Assembly: GCA_964405015.1 (NCBI GenBank)
Contig: CAYOME010000001.1
Coordinates: forward strand, 165,584 to 229,583
Direction of reading: 5' to 3'
DNA from: an uncultured Candidatus Saccharibacteria bacterium
GTDB taxonomy: Bacteria > Patescibacteriota > Dojkabacteria > SC72
DNA length: 64,000 bases
The position numbers and the translations under genes were made by a program. The notes beneath the pieces were generated by a model, which was not told the DNA's origin, searched no databases, and saw nothing but the letters and a program-made list of their open reading frames with translations. Position 1 is the first letter of the stretch. Each line of letters begins with the position of its first letter. Positions 9,407-64,000 of the stretch are shown piece by piece.

Positions 9407-11246
9407 GCTTACAAATCTACACTCAAAAAACAAAACAAAGGGGAAAAAAGATTCACTTTTTTCCAATATTCAAAAAAACAATTACAACCTAGTAATATTC
9501 CTGATCACTTTCCTTGGATTAGTAATAATAGTTCAAGCATTTAGATGGCAAGTTCTTGAATCTGAAAGATTCCAATTAATGGCCAAACAACAATATCAAG
9601 ATAGTAATAAACACACAGCAGAAAGAGGAATCATAAGAGCAAGTGATGGAACAGTACTCGCTGTAGATCAACCCATATGGAATATATATGCGACACTAAG
9701 CCAAGACAGTAAGGAAAGAGAGCTCTTCTTTAATAATAAAGACAAATTCATAGCTACGGTATCTTCAATACTAGCTGTAGAAAACAATACAATATCCGAT
9801 AAGATTACGGATGATTTTGTATATGCGGTATTAGCTAAAGGAGTAGATAATGAAAAAAAAGTTGCACTAGAGAGAGAGAATATCTTCGGAGATGAAAAAA
9901 CAAATAGAAGTGGATTCGGTTTGTATTTTGAAAAAGATGTAAAAAGAATATATCCTAATGCTCAACTAGCATCACATATAGTAGGGTTCATGGGCAAAGA
10001 TGCTCAAGGAAAAGATTTAGGACAATACGGTATAGAAGGTTTCTACTTCGGAGATATTACAGGAAGAGAAGGATATACATATGAAGAAAAGGATTCAAGT
10101 GGTAATACAATTTTAACCGCAGAGTATGAACCAGTATTACCAAGATCAGGGAAGGATATTAAGCTAACAATACAGCCAAGTATCCAAAACAAAGTAGAGA
10201 AATATCTTAAAGATGGAGTGGAGCGAACAGGTGCAAAAAGTGGAACCGTGATAATCATGGAACCTAAAACTGGAAAGATCCTAGCTATGGCTAACTTTCC
10301 AACCTTCAATCCAAATGAATATTGGAGAACATCAGATCCATGGATATTTAAAAATCTTGCAGTATCAGATGTCTATGAATACGGATCAGTTCAAAAGCCA
10401 ATTACTGTTGCACTAGCACTTGAGTCTAAAGCCGTAGATGAAGAATATACTTGTAATGACGCAACAGGATATTTAGATCTATTCACTGCAACAGGATATG
10501 AAGATCTAAAAGGGAGAAAGATTAGTACATGGGACTTAAGACCGGATGGTGTTCAAAATCTAGCAGAGATGCTTAAGAACTCGAACAATCCATGCATAGC
10601 CCAAACAGCCTTGAAAATAAATTCTGCATATTACTACTCAAAACTAAAAGAATTTGGAATAGGGGAATTCATTGGAATAGGATTACAAGAAGAGGCAACA
10701 AGCTACTTAAAACCATTCTCACTCTGGACAAGATTAGATATCATAACAGCATCATACGGACAAGGTATATCAGCAACTCCACTTCAAATTACATCAGCAA
10801 TAAGTACATTAGCAAATCATGGAACAAGAATGAGACCATACATTATCTCCGAAATCTCAGATGAGAAAGAGGTCATAGAATTTGAGCCCCAAGTTCTTTC
10901 AGAACCAATATCAAAAGATATTGCTGATAAAGTAGCAGAGATGATGTCACATGTGATAGAAGATGGAGGTATCAATGAAAGAGAAATAGAATTACTAAAA
11001 GAATATTACATAGCTGGTAAAACAGGTACAGCACAAGTAGCAAAAAAAGATGGACCCGGATATGAAGAGAAGAAAACAATTACTACCTTTGTAGGTTTTG
11101 CTCCAGCAGATGATGCCAAAATGCTTATGCTTGTAAGATTAGAAGAACCTAAAACAAGCCAATATGCTTCCCCAACCGTTGTACCTCTTTGGACAGATAT
11201 TTTCCTAGGTATAGTGAATGATCTGGAAATCCCAAAGAGAAATTGA
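9366..11246 (+). CDS. ftsI: Class B penicillin-binding protein (FtsI/PBP2-type transpeptidase)
   Basis: N-terminal TM helix, a PBP dimerisation region, and transpeptidase motifs (the GTVIIMEPKTGKILAMANFPTFNPN region, and KTGTAQ). An alternative start lies at 9399. Confidence 0.85.
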   Translation: MKTLHLLLIEIMSKLTNLHSKNKTKGKKDSLFSNIQKNNYNLVIFLITFLGLVIIVQAFRWQVLESERFQLMAKQQYQDSNKHTAERGIIRASDGTVLAVDQPIWNIYATLSQDSKERELFFNNKDKFIATVSSILAVENNTISDKITDDFVYAVLAKGVDNEKKVALERENIFGDEKTNRSGFGLYFEKDVKRIYPNAQLASHIVGFMGKDAQGKDLGQYGIEGFYFGDITGREGYTYEEKDSSGNTILTAEYEPVLPRSGKDIKLTIQPSIQNKVEKYLKDGVERTGAKSGTVIIMEPKTGKILAMANFPTFNPNEYWRTSDPWIFKNLAVSDVYEYGSVQKPITVALALESKAVDEEYTCNDATGYLDLFTATGYEDLKGRKISTWDLRPDGVQNLAEMLKNSNNPCIAQTALKINSAYYYSKLKEFGIGEFIGIGLQEEATSYLKPFSLWTRLDIITASYGQGISATPLQITSAISTLANHGTRMRPYIISEISDEKEVIEFEPQVLSEPISKDIADKVAEMMSHVIEDGGINEREIELLKEYYIAGKTGTAQVAKKDGPGYEEKKTITTFVGFAPADDAKMLMLVRLEEPKTSQYASPTVVPLWTDIFLGIVNDLEIPKRN

Positions 11247-47042: not shown

Positions 47043-48086
47043 ATGAACGATTTTTACACAAAAAAAGAGCTTAATGGGTATACCTTTGAATTTACAATGA
47101 CAATACCAAAAGATAACTTTAAGCATTCATTCGATCTTTTAGTTAAAGAATATGCCAAGGATACTGATATAAAAGGGTTTAGAAAAGGAAAAGTACCTAC
47201 TGACCTAATGAGTGATCAAATGAAAGATGTAGTTAAGTATGAGACATTTGAGAGATTAGCACCTCTTTACATAAATACTGCACTTTCAAAAGAGAAACTT
47301 GAACCTATCGCTCCACCAGAGTACAAAGAATTACCAAAGATCTTAGAAGGTTTAGATATTACCTTCACAATAAGGGTAACTACAATGCCTGAGTTTAAAG
47401 TAGGAGATGTTAAAAAGATTAAGATTAAAAAAGACAAACTTAAGGTAGAAGATAGTGAGATAGAAGAAGCTATTAATGAATTAAAAAGCTCTCAAAAAAC
47501 TAAAGCTACAGAGATAAATGATGAATGGGCAAAAGAGATAGCAGTAGTAATAAATGCTCCAGAGGTTAATACATTAGATGAACTTAAACAGAAAATTAGA
47601 GAAGCATTACAACTTCAAAAAGACCACTATCAATTACACCAATTACAAGATGAGGCATTAAGAAAAGGTATTGAGATATCAAAAATAGAAATCCCAGAAT
47701 CAGCAATAAAGTTCGAAGCTTCTGAGAGAGAAAGAGCTTTTGTAGAAGATATGAAGAACAGAGGAGTAAAGATCGAAGACTTCTTAAAGGGTAACAATAT
47801 CACAATGGAAAAGATGAGAGAACTTTGGTTAAAAGATGCTAAAGATGCGCTTGAGGCAGATACCTTCTTAAAGCTTTTTTCTGATGATAGGAAAGTAGAT
47901 ATAACTGATGAAGAATTAGAAGCTAAGATAGAGGAGATTAAAAAGACTCAACCTAATGCAGACAAAAGTATCTTTAGTAATCCTCAATGGAGAGATTACA
48001 TTAAAGGTGTTGAAAAGAAAGAAAAAGGTTTTAGACTTTTCATAGAGGAAGTATTAGGGAAAGATTTCTTAGATGATCATAACTAA
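47043..48086 (+). CDS. tig: Trigger factor (short form, apparently lacking the PPIase domain)
   Basis: N-terminal ribosome-binding signature GFRKGKVP and a C-terminal helical arm domain. It is 347 aa versus about 430 typical, and it is followed by clpP as in the canonical arrangement. Confidence 0.75.
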   Translation: MNDFYTKKELNGYTFEFTMTIPKDNFKHSFDLLVKEYAKDTDIKGFRKGKVPTDLMSDQMKDVVKYETFERLAPLYINTALSKEKLEPIAPPEYKELPKILEGLDITFTIRVTTMPEFKVGDVKKIKIKKDKLKVEDSEIEEAINELKSSQKTKATEINDEWAKEIAVVINAPEVNTLDELKQKIREALQLQKDHYQLHQLQDEALRKGIEISKIEIPESAIKFEASERERAFVEDMKNRGVKIEDFLKGNNITMEKMRELWLKDAKDALEADTFLKLFSDDRKVDITDEELEAKIEEIKKTQPNADKSIFSNPQWRDYIKGVEKKEKGFRLFIEEVLGKDFLDDHN

Positions 48087-48694: not shown

Positions 48695-49189
48695 ATGCAA
48701 GGACAAAGAGATCCTATCTACGATAATGCTAAACAAGAAGCCGAAGAATATATTAGGTCACAGATCATAAATATGATCCAGAGTGGTGATAATGATGCTT
48801 TCGTAAACGAGACGATTAGAGATATTTCTCTTACGGATATTCATGATATCCTCTTTCGTCTATATGTAGATAATAGCCTTCCATTCAAACTTACTAGAGT
48901 AGCTCATATAAAGATAGAGAATCTAGAAACTTTCGAACAACTTTGTGACCACATGGAGATTTACGATGTATCCATACCAGAAAAAGAGGCTCAAAGAGTA
49001 TATTTCCTAGAGACAAGCGATTGTGCAATTACAGTAATACCCATTCAATTATCTCCAGAAGATGGTATTAATATTCAAATAGAGCTCTTGGAGGATTCTC
49101 CTGCATTTGTAAAAGAGTTATGGAATAAAGCGACTAGAAAAAAAGGCTTAGATGATATAAAATTTGTAAAGTTTGGTAAGGGCGATTAG
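48695..49189 (+). CDS. Hypothetical acidic protein translationally coupled to clpP (occupies the usual clpX position)
   Basis: 164 aa with no Walker motifs, so it is not ClpX. It starts 2 nt after the clpP stop, and its last 10 nt overlap the tRNA-Val gene. Confidence 0.45.
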   Translation: MQGQRDPIYDNAKQEAEEYIRSQIINMIQSGDNDAFVNETIRDISLTDIHDILFRLYVDNSLPFKLTRVAHIKIENLETFEQLCDHMEIYDVSIPEKEAQRVYFLETSDCAITVIPIQLSPEDGINIQIELLEDSPAFVKELWNKATRKKGLDDIKFVKFGKGD

Positions 49190-49253
49190 CTCAGCTGGTT
49201 AGAGCATCACATTGACATTGTGGAGGTCACAGGTTCGAGTCCCGTATCGCCCA
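49180..49253 (+). tRNA. tRNA-Val (anticodon GAC)
   Basis: Acceptor GGGCGAT pairs with ATCGCCC, discriminator A. D-arm GCTCAGCTGGTTAGAGC. The anticodon loop is TTGACAT with anticodon GAC. T-loop TTCGAGT with one mismatch in the T stem, and no encoded CCA. Confidence 0.8.
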
Positions 49254-49277
49254 TTTTCTTCTAAATATAATAAAAAT

Positions 49278-49679
49278 ATGTGGCAATGCCCAAAGTGTAA
49301 AAGAGAGTTTAAAAAGAAGAATCAAACACATTCATGTGTAGCATATCCTATTGAGTATCATTTTATGAACAAAGACTATTCCAAAGACCTCTTTGAAAAA
49401 CTTGTAAAAAGAATAGAGAATGAGGTTGGTGAGATAAAGATAGAATCTTTACCATGCTGCATACACCTAGTAAGTAGCTATACATTCAGTGGGATATGGT
49501 TACTCAAAGATAAACTCAGACTTGATTTCAGAGTAGACTATCCAATTGAAAGTAATAGGGTATTAAAGCAAGAAAAACTTTCTACCAACAGATTTCTCTA
49601 CTATGTAGAAATAGCCGAAGAAAAGGATATCGATAAGGAGCTTATAAAGTGGCTAAAGGATTCATATTTCTTAAAATAG
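49278..49679 (+). CDS. Hypothetical protein with an N-terminal zinc-ribbon (CPKC...HSC)
   Basis: The ORF track starts at 49212, inside the tRNA, so I use the first Met after the tRNA (MWQCPKCKREF...). The fold is unknown. Confidence 0.4.
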   Translation: MWQCPKCKREFKKKNQTHSCVAYPIEYHFMNKDYSKDLFEKLVKRIENEVGEIKIESLPCCIHLVSSYTFSGIWLLKDKLRLDFRVDYPIESNRVLKQEKLSTNRFLYYVEIAEEKDIDKELIKWLKDSYFLK

Positions 49680-49693
49680 TTAATACATAATTA

Positions 49694-50254
49694 ATGAAAG
49701 ATACACTTAAACATCTTCTAATGCACAAATCGGAGGAAATAATGTCTAAAGACTTAAAGTATCATGACTGGGCACATGCAAAAAATGTATATAGAAATGC
49801 GCAAACTCTTCTCAAATATATCCAAGGGGATGAGATAGTAGTATTAACTTCTGCCCTCTTTCATGATATTGCTAGAGATAAAGAAAATCATGAATTAGAG
49901 GGAGCAAACATACTAAAAGATCTACTTAATGATATTTCGGAATTTCCAAAAGACAAAATAGAGGAAACATGCCTTGCGGTACTGCATCATGAACAAGGAC
50001 AGATATCAAATGAAGAAAAAATCCTTTCAGATGCAGATAAAATGGATGCTTTTAATGAGTTAGGCATTGGAAGAGGATTTATGATGGCAGCGAAGAAAGG
50101 ATACCCCCTTAAAGAAGCTGCTCTTGGATATCTAGATTTACTTAATAGTTGGTATAACGGTTTCCACTTTGATAAATCAAAAGAAATAATAAAAGATAAT
50201 TATGATTCTACAAAGAAAATATTGGAGAAAATGTTAAATGAGTATAAGTTGTGA
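49694..50254 (+). CDS. HD-domain phosphohydrolase
   Basis: H...HD metal-binding signature (YHDWAHAKNV, ALFHDIARD, LHHE, DADKMD) in a 186-aa protein. Confidence 0.65.
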   Translation: MKDTLKHLLMHKSEEIMSKDLKYHDWAHAKNVYRNAQTLLKYIQGDEIVVLTSALFHDIARDKENHELEGANILKDLLNDISEFPKDKIEETCLAVLHHEQGQISNEEKILSDADKMDAFNELGIGRGFMMAAKKGYPLKEAALGYLDLLNSWYNGFHFDKSKEIIKDNYDSTKKILEKMLNEYKL

Positions 50255-50271
50255 ATAGGTGAAAGTAATAA

Positions 50272-51303
50272 TTATAAATCCTTCTCCTTCTTAAGTTCCT
50301 TTAGTAATTCAAGCATGTGTTTTTTGAGATCAATATTCTCATCGAATAAACCGGTTCCATTTCTCTCCCAGGTCATACTTTTATCATCAATCATATTCCA
50401 AAAGTATAATTCTTCCACATATCCCTTTTCAGTACACAACTCTTTAAATAACCTATATGAATATCCCTGATACTCATACCAAGTAGGATAGGAAATACCA
50501 TCGCACACTACCTCTTGTTCTGGATTGATACTACCACCTTCATAATCTCCATTTTTAGGACCAATATCAAATTCAGTAATTATCAATGGTAATTTTGCAC
50601 TATCATGTATTTCGTCTAATACTCTATTGAGCGATTCTGTTGTAGGCAAGAAGAAAGGTCTTGGATAATATCCGCTATGAGCCTGTTCTCCTATGATATC
50701 TATTCTCCCTCCCAATTTCTTAATGTTATCAACTAGAATTAGAAACGGCTTTCTTATTTCTTCTCTAATTAAACAACCATATTCATTTATCATATACCTA
50801 CCTTCTGGATATTCATCTATAGCCCATTTAAAGATATCAGCAATTACATCTGTTTTTTTCATTTCTGTACCTAAAAAGTTCTCTTCATCTTCCTTGACTA
50901 TTTCGTTTACTAATTTAAAGAATGAGACTTTTCCCTTGTATCTATTTATTACAGCTCTAACATGATTTTCCAACGCTTGATATTTTTTATCAGAATCAAG
51001 TTCTTTATACCACTCTGGGAATACATCTAAACGCCCTGTAATTACAGTATTGAAATGAATACAAACACCATTCTCTTTAGCAAAATCAACAAGAAGATCA
51101 ACATTCTTCCAATCATATTCTATTTCAATATTCGGACCCTTAGCGATCATTCCAAATATCCCAGTTCCATACATCCCAAAGTTATTAAAATACTCTAAAG
51201 CCATTTCCTTGTACTTTGAAGATATGTTTTGTGAAGCAACATCATTAAAATATTTATGGTGAAGAATAGTTCCAGTTTTCATATAGAAGCGAGTTCTTTT
51301 CAA
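50272..51303 (-). CDS. Glycoside hydrolase family 10-like (beta/alpha)8 enzyme, no signal peptide
   Basis: It aligns with GH10 landmarks: VCIHFNTVITG, RYKGKVSFFKLVNEIV (acid/base Glu in the VNE context), RYMINEYG, RIDIIGEQAHSG and LPLIITEFDIG (nucleophile Glu in the ITEFD context). Confidence 0.55.
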   Translation of the reverse strand: MKRTRFYMKTGTILHHKYFNDVASQNISSKYKEMALEYFNNFGMYGTGIFGMIAKGPNIEIEYDWKNVDLLVDFAKENGVCIHFNTVITGRLDVFPEWYKELDSDKKYQALENHVRAVINRYKGKVSFFKLVNEIVKEDEENFLGTEMKKTDVIADIFKWAIDEYPEGRYMINEYGCLIREEIRKPFLILVDNIKKLGGRIDIIGEQAHSGYYPRPFFLPTTESLNRVLDEIHDSAKLPLIITEFDIGPKNGDYEGGSINPEQEVVCDGISYPTWYEYQGYSYRLFKELCTEKGYVEELYFWNMIDDKSMTWERNGTGLFDENIDLKKHMLELLKELKKEKDL

Positions 51304-51341
51304 AACTTTAATTACTTATATCCCTATGTTACACTAAAAAA

Positions 51342-51830
51342 ATGAAAACCGTAAGAATTGGAGATTCTCAATCCGTAGAAAAAAGAAGAATCGTCAACAC
51401 TTCTGCTGGCTGTTATCTAGTACGGAAATTACCTACCCAAAAGTATGAATTACTTCTCATTCGCAAGAAATGGAAAACAGGCGAAGAAAAATATGTATTA
51501 CCCAAAGGTCACATCGAAGGGAATGAATCTTTAGAAGAAGCTGCTATAAGGGAAACAATAGAAGAATCTGGTTATACTGATTTCGAATTACTAAACTACC
51601 TTGGTTCTATTACGTACGAATTGGATTGGAGAGAAATACAAGTTAAAACTGATCACTATTTTTTGTCTATATTAATTAGTGATAAACAGAATGACATAAA
51701 TAAAGAAACATACGAAGACGAAGTAACCATAGAAATTATATGGATAGATTTAGGAAAAGGGTTTAATCTTCTTACCTATGAAACGCAGAAGGAGATACAC
51801 AAAATAATAAAAGACATTTTGAAAATATAA
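51342..51830 (+). CDS. NUDIX hydrolase
   Basis: Nudix box GHIEGNESLEEAAIRETIEESGY (GX5EX7REUXEEXGU). Confidence 0.8.
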   Translation: MKTVRIGDSQSVEKRRIVNTSAGCYLVRKLPTQKYELLLIRKKWKTGEEKYVLPKGHIEGNESLEEAAIRETIEESGYTDFELLNYLGSITYELDWREIQVKTDHYFLSILISDKQNDINKETYEDEVTIEIIWIDLGKGFNLLTYETQKEIHKIIKDILKI

Positions 51831-51984
51831 TAATTATAACTTACAAAAGAAGTATAACTGATTCCGATTATATAGTTATGTTTTTCTTCTTCTTGATATG
51901 ACAATAAAATGAATAATATGCCTCACCCTCAGAAACTTTCGATAGAAGGCTAGAAATGTTTCTATAAAGATGTAGTATATTCCT

Positions 51985-52593
51985 ATGGAAATAGATAATC
52001 AGTCTGTAAAAAGAATCCTACAAGAAGAATTTTGTAAGAATATCTTGACTATACAACAAGTGAGAAATTTACCTTCTAGAAATACATATATCGTTAAAGA
52101 TTCAAATACTCCGTTTGTCTATAAAATCTACAATAGACAAGGACAAGAAGACGAGATATTAAATAGCATCCCAATTCAAGAGTATTTAAAAGGTGTAAAC
52201 TTCACTCTCCCTAAGATAATTAGTACTACAAGTGATAAACCATACTTTCTTAATCAGGATTACATAGTTACTCTACAAGAGTACATAGAAGGAGAGAAAA
52301 TTACACTTACAGAAGAGAATGTCTTATCTGTTGGAAAACTACTAGATAGTTTACAGAGGATTTCATATAACAATGAAACCATAGTACATGGAGATTTTAT
52401 CTTAAACAATATTATCAAAACCAAAGAAGGTAATTTGTATTTAATAGATTGGGATTATGCACATCTTGGGGATTCACAAGAAGATATTGAATATTTTATA
52501 GAATCAGAGATTATAGAAAGTAACTTACCTTTAGAAATTCAAAAACACTTAAAGATTTCTTTCTTAAATCAAGTAAGAGATAGTAATAATTGA
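51985..52593 (+). CDS. Compact APH/choline-kinase-like phosphotransferase (protein-kinase-like fold)
   Basis: Brenner catalytic motif HGDFILNNII and metal-binding LIDWDYAHLGDSQEDIEYF, plus an upstream VYKIY Lys strand. At 202 aa it is shorter than typical APH enzymes. Confidence 0.55.
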   Translation: MEIDNQSVKRILQEEFCKNILTIQQVRNLPSRNTYIVKDSNTPFVYKIYNRQGQEDEILNSIPIQEYLKGVNFTLPKIISTTSDKPYFLNQDYIVTLQEYIEGEKITLTEENVLSVGKLLDSLQRISYNNETIVHGDFILNNIIKTKEGNLYLIDWDYAHLGDSQEDIEYFIESEIIESNLPLEIQKHLKISFLNQVRDSNN

Positions 52594-52627
52594 AGATTTT
52601 TGAAATAACTTAAATCACTAGAATGAA

Positions 52628-53095
52628 ATGTCTTATCCCCAAGAACCCTCAATAGAAGGTCAAATCTATTTCTATCCACCAGAATATTACGTGTTTGATA
52701 ACTTCTCATCTTTTCAAATTAAGTACAAAGGTAAAATATATCCAACTGCAGAACATGCATATCAATCTGCAAAATTTCTTAATACAGATCCTAAACTATC
52801 AGAAGAAATAAGGAAGGCTAAATCAGCACATGAGGCATTTAAAATAGCAGAAGAGAATTCTGATAAAAAACAAAAAGATTGGGATGATATCAAACTAATT
52901 ATCATGAAAGAAATACTCATATGCAAAGTAAATCAGCATGAATACGTTAAAAAGAAACTATTACAATCCGCAGACAGAGAAATAGTAGAGGACTCATGGA
53001 GAGATAGTTACTGGGGTTGGGGAGAAGATAAGGAAGGAGAGAACCATTTAGGTAAGCTATGGATGGAAATTAGAGAAAAACTTAAAGCACTTTAG
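52628..53095 (+). CDS. NADAR (YbiA/DUF1768) family N-glycosidase
   Basis: Characteristic blocks are YVFDNFSSFQIKYKGKIYPTAEHAYQSAKF, DWDDIKLIIMKEIL and SYWGWGEDKEGENHLGKLWMEIR. Confidence 0.75.
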   Translation: MSYPQEPSIEGQIYFYPPEYYVFDNFSSFQIKYKGKIYPTAEHAYQSAKFLNTDPKLSEEIRKAKSAHEAFKIAEENSDKKQKDWDDIKLIIMKEILICKVNQHEYVKKKLLQSADREIVEDSWRDSYWGWGEDKEGENHLGKLWMEIREKLKAL

Positions 53096-53703
53096 CCAAG
53101 TACAAGCTCAGGAGAAGGTTCTACTTCAGTCTCTTTCTTCTCATAGATTCTGAGGGTATTCTTTGCTGAGAAATCCAATTTGCGAACACCTTTACATGCA
53201 AGATTAAGAGTTAAGGTTTTTATTTGATTATTCTCAACCAATGGATCAACTGAGGAGTCTATCATACTAATTGCAACCGAATATGGATCATACACTTCTC
53301 CCTCTCTTGATAAATATCCTTTATTTAGAGGAGTCTCATCAAGTGTTTCATTACGACCCCCTTGTTGAACATTATCTCTAAAACTCTTTATATTGTAAGG
53401 ACTTCTATGAACAACCTCTTTGAAATGCACAGATCTAGATCCCAATTCTTTCTTGAGAGCACTTATTGTCGAGAGTAATACTTCTCTATCTCCTTCCTCC
53501 AACTCATTAATCTTAAGAATGTCTTTTGTGTAAGAAGGCTTCTTTGCTATATTCTCAAGTACTTCCAAATAATTTTCAAGTTCGGGATCACTCTTCGGCT
53601 CGAGACCTTCTTGTACAGCCACTTTAAGTGTATTACCTGAATCTTTTATTCTTTCTTCTAAAATATCTGTTGTATTCATATATAGGAATAATAGCACAAA
53701 CAT
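53092..53703 (-). CDS. Hypothetical protein
   Basis: 203-aa ORF convergent with the NADAR gene (4-nt overlap). No recognisable motif, and the start is possibly at an internal Met. Confidence 0.35.
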   Translation of the reverse strand: MFVLLFLYMNTTDILEERIKDSGNTLKVAVQEGLEPKSDPELENYLEVLENIAKKPSYTKDILKINELEEGDREVLLSTISALKKELGSRSVHFKEVVHRSPYNIKSFRDNVQQGGRNETLDETPLNKGYLSREGEVYDPYSVAISMIDSSVDPLVENNQIKTLTLNLACKGVRKLDFSAKNTLRIYEKKETEVEPSPELVLG

Positions 53704-53777
53704 ATACAGATAAAACAGATATGACCTAATATTTAAAATATATGATAATATTCAACAAATAATTAATAACAATACTA

Positions 53778-54326
53778 ATGCTTCTTTACATAACATCGAA
53801 TCAAAACAAAACAGTTACAGCAAATAGATTACTAAGCCCATTTGGAATAACAGTAGAAGGATATAAAGTAGAAGGAATAATTGAACCACAGATAGAAGAT
53901 ATAGTAGAAATATCAAAATACAAAGCAAAACAAGCATATGAAATTGTTAAGAAACCATTAATCGTAAGTGATGGAGGATGGATGATACCAGCATTAAATG
54001 GATTCCCCGGTCCATATATGGCATATGTAAATAGTTGTTTTACACCAGAAGATTTTCTTAATCTCATGAAAGATAAGAAGGATCAAACAATCATTCTTAA
54101 GGAATGTGTTACATATATTGATGAAAATCAAACCAAATCTTTTGTATACGAAACTAAAGGGCATTTTCTTAAAGAAAAACATGGACAAGCAACATCAGTA
54201 GATCAAGTAATAACCTTTAGAGAAGATCTGAAAACAACAGCAGAGTGTATAAATGAAGGAATATCAGGAATACCTCAAAACAATCTATGGAATGAAGTAG
54301 GGGAATGGATAAAAGAGAATATTTAA
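53778..54326 (+). CDS. Ham1/ITPase-family non-canonical purine NTP pyrophosphatase (archaeal-like short form)
   Basis: ITSNQNK (the ATGNxxK site), KKPLIVSDGGWMIPALNGFPGPYMAYV (the DDSGL..ALNG.PG.YS site), and closely parallel archaeal ITPase blocks. Confidence 0.65.
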   Translation: MLLYITSNQNKTVTANRLLSPFGITVEGYKVEGIIEPQIEDIVEISKYKAKQAYEIVKKPLIVSDGGWMIPALNGFPGPYMAYVNSCFTPEDFLNLMKDKKDQTIILKECVTYIDENQTKSFVYETKGHFLKEKHGQATSVDQVITFREDLKTTAECINEGISGIPQNNLWNEVGEWIKENI

Positions 54327-54328
54327 AC

Positions 54329-54850
54329 TTATATTCCGAGATTATACTTACGGATATTTTCTATAGAAATCGCATCAAGTTTCCTTATTCTCTCAACTAT
54401 TAACCAAATTAATTCTGGCTGAATGATTTTCTGCTCAATCAATTCAATCATTGTACTTTCTAGAAATCTTTTTGCTTCTAAATATGGATTTGGAATAATT
54501 CTTTTGTCTAACATTCTGGAACGTTCTGATATTCTAAATTCTTCCTGATGAAGTATATTATCAATCAATTTGTACATAACCCCCTTTATACTGTTTGGAT
54601 ACAGAGGCGCTTTTAACATCTCTTCTCTATATTCCCAAGATTTCTGAATAAGAGAATATCTGAGCCCGTAATATGAAGATGTAAATTCAGCAACATCCTC
54701 TTGATCAAGATCATAGACATAAAATGGAGAACTCGTATCATGATATCTTCTTGCAATATTTTCAAAATACAAAAGATACTTTTCCAAGGGGTCCAAAGAC
54801 TCACTCTCTTCATGTTCATCAAAAGAAGAAATACCTGATTCTATACTCAT
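54329..54850 (-). CDS. Hypothetical protein, downstream partner of the nucleotidyltransferase-like gene
   Basis: 173-aa acidic helical protein starting 10 nt after the NTase-like gene. No clear HEPN Rx4-6H motif was found. Confidence 0.35.
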   Translation of the reverse strand: MSIESGISSFDEHEESESLDPLEKYLLYFENIARRYHDTSSPFYVYDLDQEDVAEFTSSYYGLRYSLIQKSWEYREEMLKAPLYPNSIKGVMYKLIDNILHQEEFRISERSRMLDKRIIPNPYLEAKRFLESTMIELIEQKIIQPELIWLIVERIRKLDAISIENIRKYNLGI

Positions 54851-54859
54851 ACAATCCCC

Positions 54860-55294
54860 CTATTGATTTTTTAAATATTCCTCAATCATCTTCACATGTA
54901 TAGCATCCTTGTCTCTCCCCATTTTCTTCTTCCAATCCAGAGTATCTTCTATTGATAGGAATGGATAACTTCCAATAACTATTGCTCTGTCATGTAATTC
55001 TTGGAATGTATAATCTTGCATACCCCAACAATTCCACATTTCAATAAGTTGATCAAATAGATATAGATGATGACAACTCCATCTCTCATCATAGATATTT
55101 TCAGACAACCCCTTAACTCTTTCCCAGGTAGAAGGGGATACAAACAAATCTAAATCTCTTAAATCAGAAAGAGGTCTTAAACCTAATGCAAACATAACTC
55201 CAGAACCCATGATTATGTAATCATCTGAGGATAAATTAAGAGTGTCTAACATCTTAAACGCATAAGCGGACTTAAGCTCTTGTTCTGTTAACAT
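54860..55294 (-). CDS. Minimal nucleotidyltransferase (Pol-beta superfamily)-like protein
   Basis: IIMGSGVMFALGLRPLSDLRDLDLFV fits the hG[GS]-x9-13-[DE]h[DE]h NTase signature. It is 144 aa, and the call rests on the motif only. Confidence 0.4.
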   Translation of the reverse strand: MLTEQELKSAYAFKMLDTLNLSSDDYIIMGSGVMFALGLRPLSDLRDLDLFVSPSTWERVKGLSENIYDERWSCHHLYLFDQLIEMWNCWGMQDYTFQELHDRAIVIGSYPFLSIEDTLDWKKKMGRDKDAIHVKMIEEYLKNQ

Positions 55295-55427
55295 ATTTGT
55301 TCAAATAATTTTACAAAAAAACCTTCATATTATATACCTTTCTATCGTTTTTGCACACTATAAGCCCAACATTGCAAACAAATATCATATCCACTAAAAT
55401 ACCTTAAATAATTAAAAATATTCTTAC

Positions 55428-56072
55428 ATGAAAGAAAAGATTGAATTTACAAATAACTATAATGACCTAAGTACCGATAGAGGTTTTCAATTTGAATTCC
55501 TTTGTTCAAGATGTGGGATAGGATTAAGAAGCAAATTTAAATCCTTTACCATAGGAAATGTTAGCTCAGCAATAAATACTGCAAGTAATATTTTCGGAGG
55601 AATTTTAAACAATATTGCATCTGTTGGAGAGGACGTAAAATCGGCAGCATGGGAAAAAGCACATGACGAAGCATTTGAAGAAGCAATTCTTGAACTTAAA
55701 GATGATTTCATACAATGTCCAAGATGTTCAACTTGGGTATGCAGAAAGAAATGTTGGAATACAGAGAAAGGACTTTGCAAAGAATGTGCACCAGATTTAG
55801 GGGTAGAGATGGCAGCCGCACAAGCAAGTAAATCTGTTGAAGAGGTTTGGGCACATGCAGCAATGGCAGAGGAAGATATAAAGTTGGGAAAGGAATATTG
55901 GAGAGAAGGTATTACTGCAACATGTCCAAATTGTGAAAAACCCCTTGCTAAAAATGCAAAGTTTTGTCCAGAATGTGGATTTGCTCTTAAGCAGAAAGAT
56001 CAATGTTCTAAATGTAATGCTAAGGTAGAACCAAATACAAAATTCTGTCCAGAGTGTGGAAATAAAATTTAA
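55428..56072 (+). CDS. Multi zinc-ribbon protein (four CxxC...CxxC pairs)
   Basis: CSRCG, CPRCSTWVCRKKC..CKEC, CPNCEKP..CPECG and CSKCNAK..CPECGNKI, with the last two resembling double zinc-ribbon (DZR) units. Confidence 0.5.
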   Translation: MKEKIEFTNNYNDLSTDRGFQFEFLCSRCGIGLRSKFKSFTIGNVSSAINTASNIFGGILNNIASVGEDVKSAAWEKAHDEAFEEAILELKDDFIQCPRCSTWVCRKKCWNTEKGLCKECAPDLGVEMAAAQASKSVEEVWAHAAMAEEDIKLGKEYWREGITATCPNCEKPLAKNAKFCPECGFALKQKDQCSKCNAKVEPNTKFCPECGNKI

Positions 56073-56094
56073 TAGAGGCAAAAACTCATATATT

Positions 56095-56352
56095 ATGGAA
56101 ACTGAGCAAAATAAAAATGAAGTAATAGTAATAGGAGGAGTATATAGACATTTTAAAGGTGAATATTACCAAGTCCTAACTGTAGGATTAGATTCTGAGA
56201 CATTAGAGGAACAAGTCGTATATACTACCTTGTACTTTAATCCCGAGAAAGAAACTCGTGTATGGATTAGACCCCTAAATGATTTCATGGGTACAAAGGA
56301 AATGGAAGACGGAACAATAATTAGAAGGTTTGAATTTATTAGTGAGAGGTAA
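56095..56352 (+). CDS. DUF1653-family small protein
   Basis: GGVYRHFKGEYYQVL...EQVVYTTLY...RVWIRPLNDF matches the DUF1653 consensus (YRHYKG..Y.V......VVY.....WVRP). I chose the Met at 56095 because the track start at 56056 overlaps the upstream gene. Confidence 0.55.
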   Translation: METEQNKNEVIVIGGVYRHFKGEYYQVLTVGLDSETLEEQVVYTTLYFNPEKETRVWIRPLNDFMGTKEMEDGTIIRRFEFISER

Positions 56353-56393
56353 GGATATTTAAAAAAGAAGGTATTGAATGTATACTTTTAAAT

Positions 56394-56921
56394 ATGAAAA
56401 ACCCTCAAGTAATAAAAATTGTGCTACTTTTAGCATGCCTTTCAATATTAGTTGTCTTACAAGGATTTAGAGTTAAGGACCCAGATGTAATAGGAGTCTC
56501 CGATAGCAATTCCCAAGGTGAATATTACAAGGTATTAGATGTAGTAGATGGAGACACAATAAAGATAGAAGAGATTGGAACAATAAGAGCAATTGGTATA
56601 GATACTCCAGAGACTGTAGATCCAAGAAAAGATGTTGAGTGCTTTGGGATGGAAGCATCAAACAAAGCGAAAGATCTATTAGAAAATCAACTCGTTAGGA
56701 TAGAATTCGATGAATCACAAGGTGCAGTAGATAAATATGGAAGGGTATTAGCATATATATATCTTGAAGATGGAAGAATGTTTAATGAAATAATGATTAA
56801 AGAAGGATATGCACATGAATATACATATGATTCAGAATACAAATATCAGAGTGATTTTAAAATAGCAGAAACCTTTGCAAAGGAGTCCCAAAAAGGCCTC
56901 TGGGGAGCCATTTGTCAGTAG
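56394..56921 (+). CDS. Secreted staphylococcal-nuclease-like (thermonuclease/SNase) protein
   Basis: A signal peptide, then VVDGDTIKIEE...IRAIGIDTPET, ECFGMEASNKAKDLL and DKYGRVLAYIYLEDGRMFNEIMIKEGYA, with the SNase catalytic-site residue pattern. Confidence 0.8.
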   Translation: MKNPQVIKIVLLLACLSILVVLQGFRVKDPDVIGVSDSNSQGEYYKVLDVVDGDTIKIEEIGTIRAIGIDTPETVDPRKDVECFGMEASNKAKDLLENQLVRIEFDESQGAVDKYGRVLAYIYLEDGRMFNEIMIKEGYAHEYTYDSEYKYQSDFKIAETFAKESQKGLWGAICQ

Positions 56922-56953
56922 GTATCTCATAACAAATTGATAAGAAAAAAAAC

Positions 56954-56982
56954 TTGCTAGGTATATCCCATATTGGTATATT
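56954..56982 (+). promoter_or_regulatory. Candidate sigma70-type promoter for the giant surface-protein gene
   Basis: TTGCTA, a 17-nt spacer, then TATATT, lying 26 nt upstream of the ATG at 57008. Confidence 0.35.
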
Positions 56983-57007
56983 AAATGTATAAGTATCCAT
57001 ACCTATT

Positions 57008-60000
57008 AATGAAAAAACTGCCTAGAATACAGATAAAAAATATTAACAGACGAATCTTAGTAACAATAACTGCCATAATATTGTTAGTACCTTTGTTAAT
57101 TGTTTCACTACCATATATCAAGGTCTGGCAAGCGAGAGCTGCTGCAACAATATATTGGGATGGTGGTGGTGATGGAACATCATGGTCAAATGCACTAAAC
57201 TGGAATACCGATGTAGTACCAAGCCCAACAGATGAAGTCTTGATAGATACGGCAAGTACAGTCAATATTACGGATCCAATAACAGTAACCTCTCTTACTT
57301 TAGGAAAATCTGATGGAAGTGCAGCTACTGTATTACAATTTTCATACGATGCCGTAACACTTGGAGCATTAACTATTACTGGTAGCGAATTTAGATTAAA
57401 TCCAGGAGCAATCGTTAGACATGTAGATTACAATGGAGTTAACCCTGCAAAAGTAAATATTGATGTTCAAACAGGAAATGCCTTAATTCTTGGTTCTATA
57501 AATGTTGATGCGAGAGGGTACAGAGCGGGTGATGGACCAGGACAAGGAACTGATGGTGGTGATGGTGGTGGAGGTGCTGCGTACGGAGGTAATGGTGGAA
57601 GAGCACAGCAAGGATATGCAGGAGGTACTGGGTATGGGGTATATACACTCCCTACCGAATTTGGTAGCGGTGGTGGAAATAGATCTGGATATGCAAGCAC
57701 TGGAGGTCATGGAGGTGGAGTCGTTAAGCTAAGCGTTGGTGGTACTTTAACTGTAACGGGAACTATAACTGCAGATGGAAATGTAGGAGCAAACTCTGGT
57801 GATCGAAAACCCGGAGGTGGGAGTGGTGGTTCAATATTAATTACTACTGGGACCATAACTGGTAATGGAATTGTAAAAGCAAACGGAGCACAGGGTGGAG
57901 ACTCCAACTATGATGGAGGTAGTGGTGGAGGAGGAAGAATTGCAATATATTACACTACTAATACATCTTCATTCTCTACTTTAGCAGCTGCGGGTGGAAA
58001 TTCAACCTTAGCGGGTTCTGCACAATATGGTGGGGCAGGTACAATATATATGAAAACACCTTCTCAGACTAATGGTGATTTAATAGTTAGCAACAATGCT
58101 TCAGGATGGTCTACCAACCTTTCTGCAGAAGTACCATATACTCCACTTCCAAGCGCTTTAACACTTGATAATCTAACAATATCGAAATTCGCCAATGTAA
58201 ATTATACTGATACCCTCACCGTAGGAACTACTTCAGAGGTTTCATATTACGCATATCTTAATCTAACAGGTACTGCAACACTTAATACTTTCAATATTAA
58301 TAATAGTGGTCATTTTTTCTCCCAAGTTACAGCAACAACTACATACAATACCATTAACTGGACAGGGGGAATCATAACAGATAACGGAGGAACGTTTGCA
58401 CTTGTTAGTGGTGGAGCTGCTCTAAGTATTCCAACAGGATCAATATTAAATGGAAATGTTCAAAGAACATTCACCAATGTCACTGTTGATGGTACTCTTT
58501 CTCATACAGAGAATGGAGCGACACCAACAAACAAACTAGACTATATTATTAGTGGAAATCTTACTGTTAATCTATCTGGAAGAATTAATGTAAACGAAAA
58601 AGGATATGCCCCAAGCCAAGGTCCTGGACAAGGAGTTGATCAAGAGGGTGCTGGTGGTGGTGCATACGGAGGAAATGGTGGAAATGGTGCAAACGGAGTA
58701 GGTGGTACTGCGTACGGAAGTTTAACAATACCCACTGACCTTGGAAGCGGTGGTGGATTAAGAAGTGGTAGTGGAGTTTACGGTGGAGGAGCAGTAAAAC
58801 TTACAGTAACAGGTACGACAACAATAAATGGAGATATTACTTCAAATGGTGGATATGGAGACGATGGTTCAGATAGAGATCCAGGAGGTGGTAGTGGTGG
58901 CTCTATCTTAATATATACTGGCACATTAACAGGTACTGGAAATATCAACGCAAATGGTGGTAATACAAAAGATACAAACTACGATGGCGGTGGTGGTGGT
59001 GGTGGAAGAATTGCTTTGTACTTCACTAACGATACTTCCACATTCGCTTCCTTAACCGCTGATGGAGGAAGACCTGGAGCTGGAGGTAGGTATGGTGGAG
59101 CTGGTACTATTTACCTTAAAGACAACGACGATACATACGGTGATTTGATAATAGATAATAATGAACCATCTTGGTACACACAATATTACTATGTTGCATT
59201 AACACCCTTACCTTCAAATCTTACACTTAAAAACATGACCATTGCTGACTTCTCTATTATTGAGTCTTCACAGAGTCTTTCTGTAACTGGCGACTTAAAC
59301 ATATCTAAATATTCTCACTTTAAAAATATTGGAACCGCAACTCTTAACAACATAAACATTACAGATAATGGATGGTATTACAATGAATCAGGATCTACTA
59401 CTACATATACAACTATTAACTGGACAGGGGGAATCATAACAGATAATGGTGGAACATTTGCATTACTAAGTGGAGGAAATGATCTTTCTATTCCCACGGG
59501 ATCGACACTAAATGGAAATGTACAAAGAACATTTAACAACGTTACAATAAACGGAACTTTAACTCATACCGAAAATGGAGCTACACCTGTTTACAAACTA
59601 GATTACATAGTAAATGGAGATTTACTTGTAACTTCATCAGGACAAATAAATGTAAATCTCAAGGGATATGCAATGAGTGAAGGACCCGGTGCAGGTGCAG
59701 ACGGTAGTGGTGGAGGTGGTGCAGGATATGGAGGCTATGGAAGTAATGGCGATAACTCAGTTGGGGGTCAAGCATATGGAAGTATTACACAACCAACCGA
59801 TCTTGGTAGTGGAGGTGGATATGGATCAAACTGGGGAGGTAATAGCCGAGGAGGTGGAGCGATCAAACTTTCAGTTGCAGGGACACTTACCGTTAATGGA
59901 TCAATAGTCTCTAATGGTGCAAATGGAAATGATGGCACTGACAGAGTACCAGGGGGAGGAAGTGGTGGCTCAATATGGATTACAACAGGAACACTCTCTG

Positions 60001-63000
60001 GTACTGGTACCTTTACTGCAAATGGTGGAAATGCATCAGATTCTAACTCTGATGGTGGAGGTGGTGCAGGTGGAAGAATTGCTCTGTATTTCACAACAAA
60101 TAATGCAACTCTTGCGACATTAACAGCTGATGGGGGTAGACCATCAACCTCCAAAGCATACGGTGGTGCTGGAACTATATATATTAAAGACAATGATGAG
60201 CCCAATGCAGATTTAATAATTGACAACAATGAAACCTCGTGGAATACAGCCCTAACTTCTATTGCTCCGACCCCAATAAGTACAAACCTTAACTTAAAAA
60301 ATTTAACAATCACTGATTTTGCCCGGGTTGAAACTTCAAATACCATAAATGTTGTAAATGAATTATTCTTAGGTCAGAAAGCATATTTTGTAAATACTGG
60401 TAATGTGTCCACAAACACATTCAATATTTTAGAAGCCTCTACATATCTTAATCAAGCAACATCATCAATAACTTACAACACACTTAATTGGACTGGAGGT
60501 AACGTTACTGATAATGGAGGAAACTTTGCACTTTTAAGTTCAGGCGATAATTTGCTAATACCTATCGGATCGACCCTGTATGGAAATGTCCAAAGAACAT
60601 TTACCGGTCTTACTGTGAATGGAGTTTTAACCCATACAGAAAATGGATCAACACCTCAATATAAACTAGATTACATAGTAAATGGAGATTTACTTGTAAG
60701 TTCAACTGGACAAATAAATGTAGATCTTAAGGGATATGCAATGAGTGAAGGACCCGGTGCGGGTGGAGATAGTGGTGGTGGTGGGGGGGGTGGATACGGA
60801 GGTAATGGTGGAAATGGACAAACTGGAGCTGGTGGTCAAGCATATGGAAGTATGACAGAACCAACCGATCTTGGTAGTGGTGGTGGATATGGTTCAAACT
60901 GGAGAGGTAATAGCCGAGGAGGTGGAGCTGTTAAACTTACAGTTTCTAATTCACTTACGGTAAATGGTTCAATCATTGCCAACGCCGGTGGTGGTGGTGA
61001 TGGTACGGACAGGGTACCAGGAGGTGGAAGTGGTGGATCAATTTGGTTAATAACTGGAACACTTGCGGGTACTGGTACAATTACAGCAAATGGTGGGAAT
61101 GGAGGAAATTGGAACTCTGACGGTGGTGGTGGTGGTGGTGGAAGAATAGCTTTGTATTATAAAGAAAACACTTCAACATTTAGCCTATTTACCGTTAATG
61201 CTGGTACTGGAGGTGGAGCAGCTTTAAATGGTTCTGTAGGAACAATATTCCTTGGAGGCTTCCCAATGAATCCAATAAATATGGCTCAATACAAAATAGA
61301 TGGTGTAACTGGTATCGGGGCAGGTGCAGCTACAAACGAAAACAGTATGAAGATAAAATTCCAAATGATGGACCCTAATAATACAGATACACTAACACCC
61401 GAAGTAGAATTTGTACCTTTAGGAACCGCATTTAGTAATGTAGCAACAAATACAGGAACTCCAGTATCTTACACGGGTGCAGCAGTAAATGGAGAAGTAG
61501 AAGTAACAGGATTAGCAGATGGAAGCTCATACCACTGGCAAGCAAGAATATGTGATGCAACAGCTCTTTGTTCTGATTGGACTAGCTTTGGAAACAATAC
61601 AGAGGCGGAAGCTGATGTAAGAGTAGTAATGAATGCAGATCCAAATTCACCAACAATACCCGAATCCTCTTTCTATATAAACGCACAATATACTAACAAT
61701 CTTCAACCTACATTAGGATTTGTAATTACAGACTCAAATACCGTTGACTCAGTAGGATATCAGATACAAATAGCAACAGATGCTGACTTTAATACGATCA
61801 TTACAGATTACACCTCCGCAATGGCTGCACAAGGCACACAAACCTTTACAGTAGGACAAGCAGCAGGAACAGGAACATATGCTGAAGGAGCTGAATCTCA
61901 AGAACTTACAACTGGTGGATATTACTGGAGAGTCATGGCTATTGATGATAAAGGTGGAACATCAGATTGGACTGTTGCACCAGGTACACCATCATTTAGA
62001 ATAGATCTTTCGAGACCAACAAATGCAACCTCAGTATTTGTTAAAGCATATGCAGGAGCTACAGATCAATATTCAGAAGGAGCTGAAAACGTCTGGTTTA
62101 GAAGAAATGATCTTTACTTTAGTTGGACAGCAGGTACAGATACACAAGGGGTAAAAGGTTACTGTATATATGTTGGAGACAACCCCAATGGAGATCCAGC
62201 AACAGAGAAAGGATTGCTAGGATCATCCCCTATTAGTACTACAGGTACAACATGCCAATTCATTACTGACCAAACAGAAATTGATTTCTCTAATTCCGCT
62301 CTCAGAAGCTATGAATGGTTAACATCGAGTAATACAAAATATTACTTCAAGGTAAAAACTATAGATATCGCAAACAATGTATATGAAGGACCAGATGTAT
62401 CAAACTATGTATCTTTCAATTTTGATAATACAGCTCCACAAAATGTAACAGCAATATCAACACCAAGTATTGTATTCTCAAATATTGCAGATATGTTCTT
62501 TAGCTGGACAACTGGAACTGCAGGAGCCTCTGATGATAATTCACAAGTATTAGGATTCCAATATGCTATTAACACAAGAGATACTTGGTGGGGCAATGCC
62601 ACAGATACCTTCACAGGGGTAACATATTCTCCAATGGATAGGACACAACCTCTATATCTACCAGAGGAAGTACATAGTTCTGTTCAATTAGGACAAAATA
62701 CTGTCTACTTTAGAGTTGTAGACCATGCAGGTAACTACTCTGAATTAAGAACAGCTGTTCTTAACTATGGAGGAGAAGCTCCTAAGTTTGCACAAGGAGA
62801 TGAGATAACTGTAACTCCAGTGGAAAATACCACCAACACATTTGCATTCAGCTGGCCAGCAGCAACAGCATCAGTTGGAAATACAGTAGCTACATACTAC
62901 TACATGATAAATACACCACCACCAGCATCATATTCAACAATTACTTCTAACTCAGCAACATATATAGCTACTACAGAAACATCTCTTGAAGAATTCTTGG

Positions 63001-64000
63001 TACCAGGACTAAGAAAGGGAGCAAATACAATATATATTGCTGTTGTAGACGAAGCAGGAAATTACTCACCAACAAATGCACTCTCAGCAACCTTTAACTT
63101 GAATTCTGAATTGCCAGATTCTCCATTAGATGTTGCAGTTGCAGATATTTCGATAAAAGATGTATCTATTTGGAGAGCAGCAGTTGTATGGAGTGAACCA
63201 GAATATCAAGGTACAGGGACCTTAACATACCATGTATATAGATCAGAAGATGGAGAGACATGGGAAGAAATTGCAACCACAACAGGTCTTACATATGTAG
63301 ACACAGTCCCAGAATCAAAAACATATTACTGGAGAGTAGCTACAACAGACAACTCCGATGAATCTATAGCAAGTCCATCAATATCAAATGGGGTTTCATT
63401 GGTACCAAGAGGAAAATATCTAGTACCACCAGATCTAACATCAGGTCCTGCAAGCTCATCAATATCTACAACTAAGGCAACAATATCCTGGACTACAAGT
63501 AGAATTGCAGATAGCAAGGTAGCATTTGGTTTAGAAAGTAACAATTACTTTGAATCCGAATCCTACAATTCTTCAGAAGTAACAGAGCACAAAATTGTAC
63601 TAAGCAACTTAACACCAGGTACAGAATATTTCTACAAAGCAAAATGGACGGATGAGGATGGTAATACAGGATCAAGTGATGAATTAACATTTACTACAGA
63701 ACCTGCACCTCAAGTGAAAGATGTAAGGATTAGTAATAGAGGAGTAAGTGGAGCAATAATTAACTTTACGACTGTTAAAGCAAGTAGTGTAAAAATATAT
63801 TACGGAACAACTACAAACTTTGGTGGAGTAAAAGAGATAGCTACATCTAAATTAGAAACATCATATGCCTTAGAATTGAATCAACTAGATGATGGTACCA
63901 AATATTACTACAAGATAAATACACTTGATGAAGAAGGAAAAGAGTATGAAGGTACTACTCTTGATTTCACTACATTACCAAGACCAAGAGTCTACAACAT
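57008..64000 (+). CDS. Giant secreted repeat protein (more than 2,330 aa, 3' end outside the window) with Gly-rich beta-helix-like modules and C-terminal Fn3-like domains
   Basis: Translated by hand, the frame is open from the ATG at 57008 to the window end. The N-terminus carries a signal/anchor (MKKLPRIQIKNINRRILVTITAIILLVPLLIV). About 3.5 tandem modules of roughly 355 aa follow (GYRAGDGPGQG...GGGRIAIYYT...GGAGTIY...TINWTGGIITDNGGTFAL...). Then come several Fn3-like units with YYWRV and TEYFYKAKW signatures. The ORF track omits it because there is no stop inside the window. Confidence 0.8.
57500..61260 (+). repeat. About 1.07-kb tandem coding repeats (3.5 copies) inside the giant gene
   Basis: Near-identical DNA blocks recur, for example ttaactggacagggggaatcataacagataa at about 58355 and 59415, with a diverged copy at about 60485. 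The blocks ggatatgcaatgagtgaaggacccggtgc at about 59665 and 60735 also match. Confidence 0.75.

Follow-up and report, generated by a model that had tools for sequence, protein, structure and literature searches.

The DNA analysed here is a stretch of 64,000 nucleotides (hereafter the window) from contig CAYOME010000001.1 of an uncultured Candidatus Saccharibacteria bacterium. It is a low-GC segment (about 0.33) in which a tRNA-Val(GAC) gene at 49180-49253 (+), found by both ARAGORN and Rfam, stands at the left edge of a 7.7-kb block of 13 small genes (49254 to ~56930). In our view, the block is likely to be a plasticity zone (flexible genomic island) that homologous recombination reshuffles without an integrase. 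A locus of this sort is a known kind of feature and not a new system. An earlier note on this DNA, written without database searches, had described a switch from housekeeping genes to a mosaic immediately after tRNA-Val, with frequent changes of strand. ARAGORN and Rfam, together with Pfam domain assignments, confirm the switch, and we counted six changes of strand across the block.

The content of the block differs in every relative

Relatives were gathered through a ClpP scan that took one genome per species and returned about a dozen (L005-L015), and further loci were reached through a clade-specific gene of 164 amino acids (aa) (L092-L102 and L131-L135). Among public genomes, the nearest relatives are metagenome-assembled genomes (MAGs) that carry the label Candidatus Dojkabacteria (WS6) or "uncultured Saccharibacteria", and the window is thereby assigned to the Patescibacteria/CPR. 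Sortase-tig-clpP synteny is present in all relatives from the ClpP scan, as is tRNA-Val(GAC) after clpP, wherever the contig reaches, and the order clpP, tRNA-Val(GAC) recurs in the loci of ten further relatives. In the window, the genes 5′ of tRNA-Val encode YibE/F, a Big-domain protein, sortase, trigger factor (tig), ClpP and the 164-aa protein. Loci L092-L102, which have a window-like orientation, extend the conserved left flank to MutS; the syntenic genes on this side are MutS, PPDK, AI-2E, YibE/F, Big, sortase, tig, clpP and tRNA-Val. The left flank is kept in more than 12 loci, and tRNA-Val itself forms the conserved anchor to the left of the variable region.

The cargo after tRNA-Val differs in every relative, ranging from 0 to 13 genes, with the window the largest version seen. 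The earlier note had proposed a comparison of synteny to see whether the block between clpP and the giant surface-protein gene to its right varies, and it does. In L005, the closest long relative (ClpP 91%), the giant gene starts about 100 bp after tRNA-Val and the block is absent. Alignment across this junction revealed that homology ends at the tRNA 3′ end and resumes at ~56930, just past the stop codon of the last cargo gene, a staphylococcal-type nuclease (SNase). The resumed homology includes the promoter-like region and the start codon of the giant gene. The right anchor of the island is the conserved promoter-like region and leader at 56930-57008 (+). The block delimited in the earlier note matches this indel almost to the base.

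Other relatives carry other genes at the same site. Following tRNA-Val are DUF5655 (68% identical to the window's protein and in the same position), an unassigned gene and an AAA_18 protein in L007; DUF5661, GNAT and MPG glycosylase in L008; ASCH and UDG in L009; and, in L010, a pentapeptide protein, NADAR (70% identical) and then a Dus/ClpB-like core block. DUF1653 (49% identical) lies directly after tRNA-Val in L011, YecM and a MutT-type Nudix protein follow it in L092, and DUF4238 follows it in L102, while L131 and L135 both have MPG, a methyltransferase and an S41 peptidase. Thus, one site holds different content in different relatives, the first feature of a plasticity zone; the second, strain variation with breakpoints in conserved sequence, is described below.

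Where relatives and the window have cargo in common, its divergence resembles that of core genes: 68% for DUF5655 against 66% for tig in L007, and 49% for DUF1653 against 49% for tig in L011. In addition, homologs of the cargo GH10 protein show 60-70% identity, one of them under the name Ca. Dojkabacteria. Together, these values argue for descent and exchange within the clade and not for distant donors.

Strains differ by gene replacement and mosaic identity

Near-identical Ham1 and SNase variants in cluster look-ups led to the 5.6-kb contig L136, which shares its sample of origin with L002. L136 starts within the 3′ end of tRNA-Val, and its nucleotides 1-53 match window 49227-49279 at 96% before the two sequences diverge. 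The short leader after the tRNA (49254-49279, +) is therefore common to both, and identity stops where the first cargo gene begins, at its start codon. Window 49280-53663 is replaced in L136 by one HIT-family gene, which has an HLHLHL motif and narrowly exceeds the Pfam cut-off, and by an allele of a 203-aa gene that is 39% identical. From 53663 it is collinear with the window through Ham1, a 173-aa gene, a 144-aa gene, a Zn-ribbon gene, DUF1653, SNase and the giant gene. We refer to 49280-53663 (DUF5655, HD, GH10, Nudix, APH-type kinase, NADAR and the 203-aa gene) as the left module and to 53663-56930 (Ham1, 173-aa, 144-aa, Zn-ribbon, DUF1653 and SNase) as the right module.

Identity between strains also changes along the locus. 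Sliding identity between L002 and the window is 98-99.7% in tig and clpP and only 75-82% in the 164-aa gene, and along L136 patches of 98-100% alternate with patches of 84-93%, falling to 82-88% in the giant gene. The regions of lower identity (75-93%) are the 164-aa gene, the middle of Ham1, the 144-aa gene and SNase. Breakpoints sit at gene starts and in conserved sequence; as placed by these alignments, the left recombination breakpoint is at the start codon of the first cargo gene and the right one lies near 53663. Judged from these comparisons, the mosaic is the signature of homologous recombination among strains of what seems to be one species.

Short-read contigs of the same species from three samples all break inside Ham1, at window 53786 and 54102-54175, which this mosaic would explain. 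The breaks coincide with a switch in identity to the sister strain from about 99% to about 93%, and they probably mark the boundary of a recombination patch in mixed populations.

The 164-aa gene (48695-49189, +) lies between clpP and tRNA-Val in some relatives. Elsewhere it lies beyond the variable region in the opposite orientation and adjoins Dus (L006, 11785-12261, −; L008, 5225-5740, −). Since its protein is only 70% identical (aa) between strains with identical ClpP, this gene seems to be part of the recombining zone. Metagenome scans with a profile of the 164-aa gene gave no match.

A model for the island

A model that would accommodate these data is an island of a Dojkabacteria (Patescibacteria/CPR) genome held between two core anchors, tRNA-Val to its left and the gene for the giant surface protein to its right, with cargo that would be gained, lost and swapped by homologous recombination and without a site-specific integrase. 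The recombining sequences would be the conserved anchors and the cargo genes common to strains, and the incoming DNA would probably arrive by uptake from related Patescibacteria. The 13 genes, mostly of a single domain, look independently transcribed. The left module is polymorphic within the apparent species; the right module is common to the strains and absent from the next relative.

In this model, the cargo would be a loose set of dispensable enzymes and not one pathway. We infer roles in scavenging and sanitation: the putatively exported SNase, and perhaps the HD protein and the kinase, may act as scavengers, and Ham1, Nudix and NADAR here, with HIT, MPG and UDG in other versions of the island, may serve nucleotide and base sanitation. 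Both activities would benefit an organism that is believed to depend on nucleotides from outside.

Tests for a mobile element

The left edge of the block coincides exactly with the 3′ end of a tRNA gene, and the closest relative lacks the block, as would be the case for a classical tRNA-integrated mobile island, or for the remnant of a prophage or integrative and conjugative element, that had since lost its integrase and att sites. A decayed island was one of the two readings offered in the earlier note. In its favour, the tetranucleotide distance of the island is slightly raised (0.21-0.22 compared to a typical 0.13-0.19), the NADAR, Nudix, HD and 144-aa proteins match phage protein families, and NADAR homologs are common in IMG/VR contigs.

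However, Pfam searches found no integrase or transposase among the 13 island open reading frames (ORFs) or their neighbours, nor any phage structural gene in the island, in line with the earlier note, which had recognised neither integrase nor transposase. Elsewhere in the window, ten ORFs are of a size to encode an integrase, and every one is a core gene (FtsW, MurG, MraY-like, MgsA, TyrRS, PheRS, HisRS, TatD, MraW and RelA). Since the coding density of the island is about 93%, with intergenic DNA making up only about 7% of the block, there is no room for a decayed integrase, and no pseudogene space was found. The tRNA 3′ end GTTCGAGTCCCGTATCGCCCA, for which the earlier note had proposed a search for a direct repeat downstream, occurs a single time in the 64 kb even when up to 3 mismatches are allowed; there is no att repeat. 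A 14/15 match at 49254 and 54471 falls within a gene and coincides with no boundary between modules. A general scan for repeats returned only AT-rich 14-18-mers at chance level.

Similarity to known mobile elements was likewise lacking. Comparison by blastn with phage and plasmid collections gave no DNA match, none of the 27 viral contigs recovered in an IMG/VR scan with NADAR has a second island gene, and the matches in PHROGs are to generic enzyme families only. The nested variants, and the replacement of half the island within an apparent species, do not fit a single integration event, and the divergence of the cargo follows that of the core. With the cargo that could be compared with relatives lying within the clade, a decayed integrative island is, in our view, improbable.

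Tests for a single functional or defence system

The other reading in the earlier note was a native locus. Genes that act together, either in nucleotide and ADP-ribose house-cleaning or in anti-phage defence or counter-defence, would account for the nucleotide-acting domains in five or six of the 13 genes and for the recurrence of related enzyme classes at this site in relatives. The cluster of nucleotide enzymes that the note had found unusual is real in the sense that HD, Nudix, NADAR, Ham1 and SNase domains are all present. Their assignment to one functional system did not hold, as they are never conserved as a unit. The gene set is found in no relative, being absent in L005 and different in all others, and in the sister strain, apparently of the same species, half the island is replaced, with a single HIT-family gene in place of six genes. 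The earlier note had named a gene order kept across related genomes, with no att-like repeat, as the sign of a native locus; judged by that test, the block is not a conserved native locus. Strand changes six times across the island, and homologs elsewhere have unrelated neighbours.

A role in defence fared no better. PADLOC found no complete defence system in the island, and its matches are all weak or confined to single domains: PDC-S07 for Nudix (5e-5), PDC-M42C for NADAR (1e-6), PD-T4-6 for the kinase (4e-4 and weaker) and the SNc+LTD effector profile for the SNase domain. The NADAR protein matches the anti-phage NADAR model NF053876 at 74 bits, far below the cut-off of 240, but passes the generic model TIGR02464 (109.9 bits compared to a cut-off of 73.7). 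We therefore regard a native, co-functional locus as unlikely. Because its genes are never conserved as a unit, the locus is better described as a permissive swap site with themed cargo than as a single system.

Assembly support and points against the model

Independent assemblies of the same species reproduce the gene order of the island and both of its junctions. Three contigs with 99.9-100% identity to the window cover tig through the tRNA and 9 bases on the island side (L001), the tRNA 3′ end to 53786 (L084), and 54175 to a point within the giant gene (L086). L136 provides an independent link between the 3′ end of the tRNA, the right module of the island and the giant gene. In other assemblies, clpP and tRNA-Val are joined to DUF5655 (L007) or to the giant gene (L005). 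The GC content of the island (0.31-0.33) equals that of the genome.

Several points weigh against a recombining flexible island. In the independent same-species data, the join at the tRNA consists of about 30 overlapping bases (L001/L084), and many short-read contigs of the species are broken at the tRNA or within it. The raised tetranucleotide distance could possibly reflect some foreign input, and an integrase may act in trans from beyond the 64-kb window. L002 and L136 are short contigs from one sample that are only presumed to be parts of one genome. Finally, the sequences show the variability, the breakpoints, the mosaic, the lack of mobility genes and the domain content directly, and we infer recombination after DNA uptake from the breakpoints and the mosaic.

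The contig breaks at the tRNA, with those of another relative described next, would also fit an assembly or binning artefact in which the block is joined to the clpP contig only via shared tRNA sequence and has its true place elsewhere or in another organism, but the near-identical contigs across the junction regions, the joins in L136, L007 and L005 and the matching GC content make this explanation very unlikely.

In that other relative, which carries P0011 (L092-L100, positions 10495-10573), contigs 13-85 kb long stop at tRNA-Val or inside it in 7 of the 10 places shown and continue into YecM and Nudix in the other 3. These breaks point either to heterogeneity beyond the tRNA or to k-mers of the tRNA that co-occurring species have in common. 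We had considered the contig breaks at the tRNA as a sign of strain heterogeneity and downgraded this idea, as an assembly with k=31 that meets the tRNA k-mers of co-occurring species breaks alike.

Cargo genes with assigned domains

The domains listed in the earlier note (Zn-ribbon, here assigned to DUF5655, HD, GH10, NUDIX, APH, NADAR, Ham1, multi-Zn-ribbon, DUF1653 and SNase) were all recovered by Pfam. In the left module, the first gene (49278-49679, +) encodes DUF5655 with an N-terminal CxxC Zn-ribbon (PF18899, 28.2 bits). It is followed by an HD-domain phosphohydrolase (49694-50254, +; PF01966, E 2.6e-11), which is PRK10119-like in NCBIfam but scores below the cut-off.

The third gene, on the opposite strand (50272-51303, −), encodes a GH10-family glycoside hydrolase (PF00331, E 4.9e-29, 102 bits). 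By inspection, the protein contains VNE and TEFD motifs, which we take to hold the catalytic glutamates of GH10 enzymes (VNE the acid/base, TEFD the nucleophile). With the profile match and both motifs present, we assign it to the family. The earlier note had listed the hydrolase as cytoplasmic; it has no N-terminal hydrophobic segment and no signal peptide.

The remaining left-module genes with assigned domains are on the forward strand. These are a Nudix hydrolase with an intact Nudix box (51342-51830; PF00293, E 4e-15), which reaches no NCBIfam equivalog cut-off; a short APH/CotS-type small-molecule kinase with HGD..N and IDWD motifs (51985-52593; PF01636, E 9.6e-12); and the NADAR-domain protein (52628-53095; PF08719, 109.7 bits compared to a cut-off of 35.1).

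The right module begins with a Ham1/ITPase-family NTP pyrophosphatase (53778-54326, +; PF01725, E 4.3e-18, 66.3 bits compared to a cut-off of 22.5). This protein remains below the NCBIfam equivalog cut-offs (101.7 compared to 203 for XTP/dITP diphosphatase, and 79.7 compared to 145 for a second model); its N-terminal TSNxxK motif is present and its C-terminal motif is divergent. Further along are a multi-zinc-ribbon (double Zn-ribbon) protein (55428-56072, +) with matches to DZR, Zn_Ribbon_1 and Zn_ribbon_3, and a DUF1653 protein (56056-56352, +; PF07866, E 8.3e-19), the likely start of which is near 56095; gene callers give it 85 aa. The last cargo gene (56394-56921, +) encodes a putative exported or membrane-anchored SNase (PF00565, E 2.1e-26) that is NucI-like at 121 bits in NCBIfam and has a visible N-terminal hydrophobic leader.

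These last two genes contain a 58-nt direct repeat that is 71% identical between its copies, one at the start of DUF1653 (56128-56185) and one in the N-terminal part of SNase (56487-56544). Both copies encode a GEYYxVLxV-like peptide. The repeat could be due to chance or to a small duplication.

Two rare protein families

Three island ORFs, all on the reverse strand, have no Pfam family: 53092-53703, 54329-54850 and 54860-55294. The first two encode proteins of 203 and 173 aa that are distant paralogs (24% identity, BLASTP E 6e-8) located 0.6 kb apart. The 203-aa gene belongs to the left module, and the strain-replacement breakpoint near 53663 falls in its 5′ end; the 173-aa gene belongs to the right module. 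Their all-helical family is very rare, with 8 true relatives among 1.84 billion cluster representatives. A third member, at 532-1125 (−) of L136, is the 39%-identical allele of the 203-aa gene. AlphaFold predicts that the 173-aa protein consists of six helices (pLDDT 89.6), and a Foldseek search of this model against the PDB returned no match (best E 0.46).

The 144-aa protein of the right module (54860-55294) is represented by 4 clusters in 5.8 billion proteins. It contains a GSG...DxD motif, on the strength of which it is only possibly nucleotidyltransferase (NTase)-like. Sequence and profile searches found no match in Pfam, NCBIfam or the PDB, its structure model is poor (pLDDT 55.6), a fold search with that model gave nothing meaningful, and its match to phrog_12854 is weak.

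The earlier note had described a nucleotidyltransferase-like pair at this point. Apart from the motif in the 144-aa protein, we found no profile, PDB or model support for the pair. Nor did we find support for a pair resembling MNT-HEPN at 54329-55294. There is no support for an NTase fold, the alignment of the 173-aa family contains no conserved His and so lacks the HEPN Rx4-6H feature, and homologs of the 144-aa protein elsewhere do not adjoin any relative of the 173-aa protein. IMG/VR scans with the 144-aa and 173-aa proteins found nothing. On an unrelated short contig (L090, 1103-1812), the gene for a homolog of the 144-aa protein (51% identical) precedes a 104-aa gene and then a PIN-domain gene, a neighbourhood that looks toxin-antitoxin-like.

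Flanking genes

To the right of the island, a gene for a giant Gly-rich surface protein (57009-64000, +; >2300 aa) continues past the end of the window and is the core gene of the right flank. It is preceded by a promoter-like TTGCTA-17-TATATT at 56954-56982. In a scan of promoters and terminators, counts equalled the shuffled expectation, and the scan was uninformative except for this conserved promoter of the giant gene. The giant gene has a GC content of 0.40, compared to 0.33 for the genome, is the strongest tetranucleotide outlier in the window and holds GGTGGTGATGG-type repeats. It is 57% identical to its L005 counterpart and 82-88% identical between strains, although the promoter region is conserved.

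On the left, trigger factor (47043-48086, +) is only 347 aa long, with N- and C-terminal domains and no match to a PPIase (FKBP) domain; its short length is the same in all relatives. An Rfam scan of the window detected two tRNAs and nothing else.

Implications

The locus provides a base-resolved example of a reduced-genome bacterium of the candidate phyla radiation (CPR) with a small flexible gene pool, in which whole genes would be swapped between strains at one tRNA-anchored recombination hot spot that has no integrase. The recurrent cargo for nucleotide-pool and DNA-base sanitation fits the idea that such functions are tuned strain by strain in organisms that depend on scavenged nucleotides. 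The locus also brings to light two protein families that are very rare, and it carries a warning for annotation: a block of genes adjacent to a tRNA is not automatically a "decayed integrative island" or a "defence island".

A bolder idea, which we advance as speculation and think rather unlikely to be correct, is that the cargo is a selected toolkit for "imported-nucleotide immunity" in an epibiont living on host-derived nucleotides. If so, strains would swap sanitising enzymes (Ham1, Nudix, HIT, HD, NADAR, MPG and UDG) at a single hot spot, and these enzymes would counter damaged, modified or toxic nucleotides and ADP-ribosyl adducts from different hosts. The two paralogs (203 and 173 aa) and the 144-aa protein would then serve this task too, as enzymes or regulators of a new kind.

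Comparison with known systems

Like P4-type tRNA-integrated islands and prophages, the island lies directly 3′ of a tRNA and is absent from a close relative. Unlike them, it has no integrase, att repeats or mobility or phage genes, and it occurs in many nested variants. Anti-phage defence islands also contain small, variable, strand-switching genes with NADAR, Nudix, kinase and nuclease domains. However, the cargo of the relatives consists of repair glycosylases, methyltransferases and GNAT proteins, and not of recognised defence genes.

Islands have been described in this group of bacteria. In the passages covered here, Gios et al. (mSystems 2025; PMC12455944) describe genomic islands and mostly within-phylum gene transfer in Patescibacteria, with the islands predicted by composition-based tools on concatenated MAG contigs. 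The same passages report such organisms to be without nucleotide biosynthesis and suggest that restriction-modification cargo helps them to source nucleotides. As far as those passages go, the MAG islands of PMC12455944 resemble the locus in being accessory CPR regions with within-phylum transfer and nucleic-acid-related cargo, and they describe no equivalent tRNA-Val locus. The window island differs in that it is defined by comparative synteny and strain breakpoints and has little compositional signal. It is plausible that its recurrent nucleotide-enzyme cargo fits organisms without nucleotide biosynthesis, as these are portrayed in the portions of PMC12455944 covered.

The comparison with flexible genomic islands extends to most features of the locus. 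As in those islands, a fixed site between core genes and near a tRNA holds content that varies by relative and by strain. Rodriguez-Valera and colleagues are said to distinguish additive from replacement flexible genomic islands in bacterial pangenomes. Additive islands adjacent to tRNAs usually carry integrases or other mobile-element genes. Unlike these, the window island is without an integrase, and its host is a reduced-genome CPR bacterium. Here nucleotide and base sanitation enzymes dominate the cargo, in place of transporters, glycosyltransferases or defence systems. In its small accessory cargo, its replacement of whole genes, its breakpoints in conserved flanks and its mosaic identity, the locus after tRNA-Val resembles other flexible genomic islands.

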